A stretch of DNA of 62,598 nucleotides, filler included, from Bipalium vagum (Eukaryota): assembly GCA_037834085.1 (NCBI GenBank). It is 3 parts of 3 records of this genome, joined end to end, with 100 filler letters (N's around TTAATTAATTAA, not from the genome) between each part and the next. Parts side by side here need not be neighbours in the genome. Positions count along the whole stretch, not along the records: positions 15,992 to 46,211 come from JBBMKC010002155.1; 2 more parts are not named here. One strand, written 5' to 3'. Below the pieces are notes generated by a model. The model did no database searches. It had not been told where the DNA came from and saw only the letters and a list, made by a program, of their open reading frames with translations. Shown in pieces: positions 40,829 to 41,644 of the stretch (position 1 is the stretch's first letter; the number at the start of each line of letters is the position of its first letter). The position numbers and the translations under genes are program-made.

Positions 40829-41085
40829 TGTGTTTAATCCTGACAATTACGATCTGGTAAATTAGTTATCAGATTCGATTTTTTACTTCAGGGCGTCTAC
40901 ACATTTCCTTGTGTAAATTGATATCTTCTTCAATTAAATATTGTCATTTTGATTTTAGTAAAAGGAAAACCTTTAAAAAGTTGTAAAAAGTGTATTTAAA
41001 ATCAAAGTTGTAAAAATCGTTTTGCATATCTTATTTGTGATCGGTACACTACCTTAAGGAATCAGATTGAGATAAATTAAACACA
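40829..41085 (-). repeat. 257 bp LTR (3' LTR of the env-bearing element)
   Basis: Perfect 10 bp terminal inverted repeats TGTGTTTAAT...ATTAAACACA, immediately preceded on the minus strand by PPT GAGGGAGTGAGGG (41098-41086). Confidence 0.75.
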
Positions 41086-41105
41086 CCCTCACTCCCTCAC
41101 AAAAC

Positions 41106-41644
41106 TTAACAAATTTTTATATCTTGCCTATGTTTTTTATTTAATATATTATTGGCACAGGGTGGACATAATGCTAATATTAATTTCCAAGTGCAGCCTA
41201 ATGCTTCATATAGGTCTTTACATGATATAAATCTAATGAATATTGTTTTAATTATACCCATATAAAGTATATTCCTGAAAATCTTGCTACAACTGTTCCG
41301 AAATTCGTAAATCCTCCTCATAGATATTTGATTACAATTGATGCTGCTGTTATGTAATGCTCTGGGCTAAATAAACGATTATAGTCTACTCTACCTGTTT
41401 TCATGTCATTTATTCGTGCCATCATTTCTAATATTGTTCTTTCATGTACTAGTGGAAATAACATTGATTTTCTTGCATCTTCGAAATCTTTTTCTGTATA
41501 AACTCCTCCTTCATTCATTGTGGATATTGTTTTGAATATTATTTTATTTTGTAGATTTATGCTATCTAATGTTTGAACAGGTTCCCATGGAGCCTTTCTT
41601 TTTGGTAATGATATCCACTGATCTCCTATTTTATATAGAGGAGA
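41106..41644 (-). pseudogene. C-terminal fragment of a chuvirus-type (herpes gB-like, class III) envelope glycoprotein
   Basis: SPLYKIGDQWISLP...PVQTLDS...FKTISTMNEGGVYTEKDFEDARKSMLFPLVHERTILEMMAR...LFSPEH..., then a hydrophobic C-terminal part ...GIIKTIFIRFISCKDLYEALGCTWKLILAL. Stop lies 7 nt before the PPT. Confidence 0.7.

Follow-up and report, generated by a model that had tools for sequence, protein, structure and literature searches.

The envelope (env) fragment found in a stretch of the Bipalium vagum genome is best explained, with a probability of about 0.85, as part of a single decayed minus-strand Ty3/gypsy element in which env stands before the reverse transcriptase (RT), RNase H (RH), and integrase (IN) domains, and the PPT and LTR that appeared to close this element would belong to an unrelated, solo-LTR-like insertion of 1.5 kb. 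The stretch analyzed, called the window here, is 62,598 nucleotides long, filler included, and was taken from assembly GCA_037834085.1; its positions 15,992–46,211 represent record JBBMKC010002155.1. The GC content of the window is about 27%, and planarian genomes are described as >70% A/T in PMC11410931. A first-pass annotation had interpreted the region 41644–40829 as the 3′ end of an LTR element with an intact PPT and LTR. However, the two signals probably sit within the later insertion, with pol downstream of env, and this interpretation is not supported.

The C-terminal third of a chuvirus/gB-type env occupies 41644–41255 on the minus strand and corresponds to positions 433–561 of the Pfam profile PF24664 (Monjiviricetes_fusion; profile length, 653; cut-off, 27 bits). 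The frame 41644–41321, whose earlier reading was reproduced, matched this profile at 35.6 bits (E = 3.6e-9), and when the stop was replaced by X, the whole of 41255–41644 scored 57.3 bits (E = 9.8e-16). The in-frame stop is at 41320–41318, and the same frame then matches the profile for approximately 21 more codons. A frameshift near 41254 leads to the membrane-anchor and tail region (41254–41112, minus strand), where the similarity to PF24664 is weak but collinear (E = 0.12; profile positions 564–607) and where tblastn placed pieces of nine relatives in the second frame. The first-pass annotation had described a frameshift, then a hydrophobic tail and a stop. The frameshift and the tail were found, but the stop precedes the frameshift by about 21 codons, and neither env piece alone holds a 19-residue stretch with a hydropathy of ≥ 1.2; the membrane span of the relatives maps across the frameshift of the window env. 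The 5′ part of env is lost: profile positions 1–432 are absent, and the ectodomain with the fusion loops and the anchor are incomplete.

Over 132 columns, the env fragment shared 31% identity with the Hubei chuvirus-like virus 1 glycoprotein, and over 128 amino acids, it shared 35% with P0022, one of the relatives of the fragment. A fold was predicted for the full-length P0022, not for the fragment, on an alignment of 28 rows (pLDDT, 74; pTM, 0.43), and it matched both chuvirus G (best E = 3e-40) and HSV-1/herpesvirus gB (best E = 1e-12), with modest TM-scores of 0.3–0.5 in either case. Based on the profile match, the identity to chuvirus G, and the fold of P0022, the assignment of the window fragment to the chuvirus/gB-type class III env homologues is sound. 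The homology claimed in the first-pass annotation therefore holds, with HMMER placing PF24664 above its cut-off and the likeness to gB resting on the predicted fold of P0022. Because the env copies in three public runs (X1–X3) differ from the window at both the stop and the frameshift, these two lesions look private to the window copy.

Searching with the env piece by a full HMMER scan yielded 38 matches, of which four are multi-stretch repeat matches and probably spurious. Word-indexed protein searches with the same piece found nothing (0 of 1,605 candidates and 0 of 2), the Atlas search returned no match at ≥ 0.9, and the PDB sequence search returned nothing significant; the viral contigs searched contained no relative of env or of P0016, the nearest relative of the window RT. 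One metagenome locus (L001) was rejected as an env relative, because it was a false match to the opposite strand of a gyrase gene. An env tree was constructed from 32 rows, leaving out matches with < 95 aligned residues. In this tree, the window sequence fell on the side of the retroelement envs that are followed by a protease, a position that is not firm (support, 93/83), and a long branch separated the viral and retroelement groups.

The Ty3/gypsy pol lies downstream of env on the same strand (39450–36825). The first-pass annotation had not linked it to env, and it bears out the claim that env is carried by an LTR retroelement. RT and RH occupy 39451–38120 and contain frameshifts and stops (RVT_1, E = 9e-27; RT_RNaseH, E = 1e-32); IN, which is also frameshifted, occupies 37870–36825 and comprises an H2C2 zinc finger (Integrase_H2C2, E = 1.7e-14), the rve core (E = 7.5e-12), and a C-terminal domain. 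The order RVT_1, RT_RNaseH, Integrase_H2C2, and rve is gypsy-type, and Pfam reported no Pao families in the window pol, so the choice between gypsy and BEL/Pao falls to gypsy. The RT core was 50–56% identical to the env-bearing polyproteins vs. 37–44% to ordinary gypsy matches, and IN was 40–48% identical to the env-bearing relatives vs. 25–34% to others. The nearest RT relatives were those of the P0016 group (64–70%), the available part of which starts shortly before the protease and has no env there; in P0016, the protease is approximately 170 amino acids before RT. The deep forks of the RT tree were without resolution.

To describe the domain order of the relatives, 20 of the 38 env-piece HMMER matches were scanned for domains, together with five further cluster members. 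A protease followed env in 10 of these 20 matches, with RT in the same open reading frame (ORF) as well in 3, and two of the five further members, P0059 (3,003 aa) and P0061 (4,844 aa), are env-PR-RT-RH-IN polyproteins. In the window, 46 open codons (39595–39457, minus strand) beyond the insertion continue the reading phase of the env tail (phase sum, 0 mod 3). This segment beat its shuffles against the post-env tails of 3 of 7 relatives (3–7 of 500 shuffles) and against none of 6 pre-RT regions, a modest result for 13 comparisons, and it likely represents, judging from sequence, the cytoplasmic tail of env where it passes into the RT leader. The composition of env and pol is also alike (GC, 0.30–0.35; AT skew, about −0.2 to −0.3), and the left part of the insertion differs, with an opposite AT skew over 39801–40700. 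Taken together, the continuity of phase and strand, the polyproteins of the relatives, and the RT and IN identities suggest that env precedes pol and that both came from the same clade of elements. The distance from env to pol is 1.7 kb with the insertion and 73 codons between anchors without it. The corresponding gap in five relatives is 300, 337, 534, 628, and 1,622 codons, and all five have a protease there; no protease was found between env and RT in the 46 codons of the window. The nematode ERVs of Sacco et al. 2022 reportedly have a continuous gag-env-pro-pol ORF with the protease between env and RT.

The insertion that separates env from pol is AT-rich, extends over 39597–41111 (1,515 bp), has TGT…ACA ends, and is flanked by CATT and AATT, i.e., a 4-bp target duplication with one mismatch. 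Its left boundary is shared by a second, partial copy in the opposite orientation (42475–41651, minus strand; 70–72% identity to 39646–40542), which abuts and truncates env. At this shared start, the score was 65 for the first 80 bp vs. −13.5 for the flanks, and the shuffled maximum was 27.5. We aligned the contigs of four public runs onto 40543–41700, and 32 pieces were listed (1,224 more exist). The repeat family is abundant and diverged, with 1,171 contigs of run X1 aligning to this region. In one X1 contig, 41651 is connected to 40543, the two parts being on opposite strands. The env-bearing contigs leave the window at 41113; for example, a 5,618-bp contig of run X2 aligns over 41113–41641, stops at 41113, and continues for approximately 2.9 kb unlike 40543–41700. 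The loose end of X1 at 41113 (three contigs, among those listed) agrees by eye with 39564–39593 in 27 of 30 letters, and the junction support across the insertion is thus ≤ 30 letters in three contigs of one run. The insertion showed no likeness to the region after the 3′ part of the element, which gives no support to its being the element's own LTR, and it is likely, from its ends, flanks, and family, to be the solo LTR of an unrelated abundant family. As a separate observation, a unit of about 100–118 bp occurs at 39995–40284 in three copies that have diverged, as in LTR enhancer regions.

The proposed 257-bp LTR (40829–41085) is likely an internal part of this insertion, and the proposed PPT is a purine run near its right end (41098–41086, minus strand), inside the 41111 boundary. 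The purine run is present, it stands directly beside TG, and the 10-bp inverted pair at 40829/41085 is perfect; X1 depth also falls just beyond 41088. These features would suit a gag-pol-env element ending at 41644–40829 with its own PPT and 257-bp LTR, but we consider such an element very improbable. The 257-bp segment is single copy, matching only itself in the repeat search of the window, and no flanking duplication of it was found. At least five of the 32 pieces listed, with each of the four runs represented, extend ≥ 31 letters to either side of 40829, so this position is not an element end, and these contigs by themselves have already largely refuted the own-LTR model. Furthermore, the env-bearing contigs exit at 41113, before the purine run, and the relatives have protease and pol after env. 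The inverted pair is at chance level in our judgment: 11 such pairs (TG start, 150–600 bp spacing) occur in the window, against a mean of 3.7 (range, 0–10) in 50 block shuffles. Because the 257 bp lack a flanking duplication and have no boundary at 40829, we rejected a MITE as their explanation. The summed X1 depth was approximately 18,900 over 41050–41088 and 1,100–1,300 just beyond 41088, a fall of about 15-fold, although depth does not measure how many copies exist, and contigs of small size are clipped where a repeat ends. Based on this fall, most members of the repeat family may end or diverge nearer 41085–41090 than 41111; among the 32 pieces listed, none bridges 41085 or 41112. The locus is a useful caution in that a solo LTR nested in another element may pass for a PPT–LTR end.

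Two other explanations keep the insertion but separate env from pol. In one of them, two decayed elements, both members of one env-bearing clade, contributed env and pol separately, and a deletion near 39460–39560 brought these together. The absence of the protease and spacer between env and RT (73 codons vs. 300–1,622 in all five relatives) and the protease of P0016, the nearest RT relative, at about 170 amino acids before RT both speak for such a join. However, env and pol agree in strand, phase, and composition, and an internal deletion in one element is a simpler account of the same facts, so we regard the join as improbable. In the other, the window env is a non-retroviral endogenous remnant of a chuvirus glycoprotein gene, and its position next to a gypsy pol is incidental. 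The 31% identity to chuvirus G and the long branch between the viral and retroelement env groups fit this idea, and the arthropod chuvirus inserts covered in PMC10084718 are often near LTR elements. Nevertheless, the retroelement polyproteins match the fragment better (E = 1e-14 to 1e-12) than viral G does (E = 3e-5), many diverged copies are present in the four runs, and the env frame runs on toward RT; an endogenous viral insert is therefore even less probable than the join, and about as poorly placed as the own-LTR model. A single decayed gypsy element with env ahead of pol remains the preferred reading.

We also analyzed the region that follows IN in this element. Within 36821–36167 on the minus strand, a hydrophobic segment (36542–36486; hydropathy, 2.8) comes first; the frame then changes, and a retropepsin with DTG and one stop begins (36484–36167; RVP, 23.5 bits; cut-off, 20.7 bits). 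Next, at 36059–35613 (minus strand), is an ankyrin-like module, which is weak as Ank_2 (E = 0.04) and matches the ankyrin region of P0061 (E = 8e-12), where the module stands between env and RT. The accessory coding pieces at 35444–34055 (minus strand) comprise a membrane span (35297–35241; hydropathy, 4.2), an ORF, and a DEDDh/RNase T-like exonuclease remnant (34336–34055), the first Atlas match of which was 0.91 to RNase_T clusters, with the family on 20–30% of their members. The catalytic motif of this remnant looks degenerate. Pfam gave no match for the accessory pieces at 34055–35444, and the accessory ORFs had no match in PHROGs or NCBIfam either. Near 33770–33750 (minus strand), where the AT skew flips, a purine-rich run is followed by TGTG, with no partner in the window; this is a candidate for the real PPT and the start of the 3′ LTR of the element. 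Paired LTRs, a PBS, and a gag of the env-bearing element were not found in the window, where its 5′ part is truncated. A 97-codon, coiled-coil-like ORF (42715–43008, minus strand) stands upstream of the second repeat copy and matched neither the gag regions of the relatives nor any family.

Among the relatives with full post-integrase tails, two of the four have a protease motif right after IN, and all four have hydrophobic segments. P0061 has four protease stretches by Pfam and seven motif matches. At least two aspartic-protease domains per polyprotein, some of them after IN, were observed in P0020, P0021, P0024, P0028, P0035, P0041, P0059, and P0061, and it is a matter of speculation that tandem domains pair within one chain. 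The simplest reading of the window arrangement is that this copy suffered a deletion and that members of the family commonly have several protease modules. A more elaborate reading, which we hold to be unlikely but less so than the rivals above, is a sublineage in which the protease between env and RT is missing and a membrane-anchored post-integrase retropepsin is used instead, in a clade with shuffled protease, ankyrin, and membrane modules. If true, this would be an undescribed way of processing a retroelement polyprotein across a membrane, and a modular polyprotein with multiple proteases is relevant to the question of how Gag-Pol releases a type I membrane protein from its middle. The accessible text of PMC6431247 and PMC13524379 contains no mention of multiple or post-integrase proteases; the figures and repository of the latter may include domain maps relevant to the protease position, and Grohme 2018, Sacco 2022, and Repbase may cover the accessory modules. 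Literature searches for the gag-env-pro-pol order and for multiple protease domains used narrow phrases and found none, which does not imply absence from print. One 2,627-aa env-PR-RT-RH-IN polyprotein, P0023 (HBK71150.1), is labeled as a protein of a Flavobacteriaceae metagenome-assembled genome, and is likely from an animal retroelement contig binned by mistake.

A gypsy lineage with a gB-type env before pol is already known in flatworms from PMC6431247 and PMC13524379, and the suggestion that the lineage was undescribed in this host group is thus incorrect. Our locus is one more decayed copy of a published kind, namely the gypsy elements of invertebrates, planarians included, whose gB/chuvirus-type env stands before pol. 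PMC13524379 (Chary and Hayashi) reports that Platyhelminthes, Nematoda, and Bryozoa have only the HSV/gB-type env in the GAG-ENV-POL order, and that a chuvirus-like glycoprotein also occurs beside gypsy pol. Since several invertebrate phyla are reported to carry such elements, the reading of the window copy does not hinge on its host. It lists nine flatworm ENV_HSV elements in three species, six of them in Schmidtea mediterranea with 1–215 copies. Smed_errantivirus_1–6 and the window element both have a gB/chuvirus-type env upstream of pol and a Ty3/gypsy RT-RH-IN, and in the window, as in the GAG-ENV-POL gB-type errantiviruses, less than 2 kb separates env from the pol that follows it on that strand. 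The S. mediterranea elements have no LTR within 3 kb, which fits long accessory regions. In contrast to them, the window copy is broken by several stops and frameshifts and is without gag and most of env. This likeness is one of description, because the supplement gives only the N-terminal ectodomain, which is absent from the window (PMC13524379).

Burro/GYPSM1, a giant gypsy element of dugesiid planarians, has env in frame between gag and pol; its env matches mononegavirus glycoproteins, and decayed fragments occur in a third planarian (PMC6431247, Arkhipova and Yushenova). It shares ankyrin repeats with the window element, which has an ankyrin-like module, and it carries MATH, BIR, and BCL2 domains, where the env relative P0022 has a Bcl-2-like piece before env that is below the cut-off. 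However, Burro has a protease and a dUTPase between env and RT, whereas the window has none there and a protease after IN (PMC6431247); relative to Burro, the missing protease may reflect a deletion in the window copy. Anakin of mosquitoes also has a chuvirus-type glycoprotein on an LTR element, but it is BEL/Pao, whereas the window pol is Ty3/gypsy with a gypsy-type RNase H, an H2C2 integrase, and env before RT (PMC7642597). The non-canonical ERVs of nematodes, cited in PMC13524379, have env before pol in a metavirus, like the window, in nematode hosts.

Judging from its relatives, an intact member of this family would encode one long polyprotein with the order gag, env, protease(s), RT, RH, IN, and accessory modules. 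By analogy with class III fusogens, the signal and anchor segments of env would guide it across the ER membrane, keeping Gag and Pol cytosolic, and the retropepsin and host proteases would free the parts; a trimeric env could then yield enveloped particles that fuse with neighboring cells. The history of the window copy may have included the insertion of the 1,515-bp repeat with its 4-bp duplication. Through a second repeat copy and a deletion, gag and two-thirds of env at its 5′ side would then have been lost. The protease region that separates env from RT in relatives probably disappeared in another deletion, and point decay would have come last. With gag and two-thirds of env gone, and the remaining env interrupted by an insertion as well as by a frameshift and a stop, the window copy is dead and unable to make env or a particle. 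The potential infectivity once proposed for this locus is not supported, since the copy is broken in several places.

The window contained no tRNA genes, and a bacterial promoter scan, irrelevant to an animal host, gave chance-level results. Other mobile elements were detected: an integrase-like remnant (rve, E = 2.5e-5) with ORF pieces at 16200–17291 (minus strand), similar decayed coding pieces at 32000–33100, and a decayed pogo/Tigger-type DDE_1 transposase at 29283–30086 (plus strand; E = 1e-18). Three regions, each with weak Pfam support, are presumably host exons: 6382–7533 (minus strand; synaptotagmin-like membrane protein), 19586–24691 (plus strand; C2H2 zinc-finger protein), and 26000–26808 (minus strand; IQCG/DRC9-like, a motile-cilium protein). 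The gaps are at 15892–15991, 46212–46311, and 14016–14115; two of them have a 12-base spacer with stops in all frames between runs of N, and a 77-bp segment is present on both sides of the first one. Two dispersed repeat pairs were also observed, at 5946–6307 and 57179–57535 (81% over 363 bp) and at 52410–52532 and 61641–61758 (79% over 123 bp).
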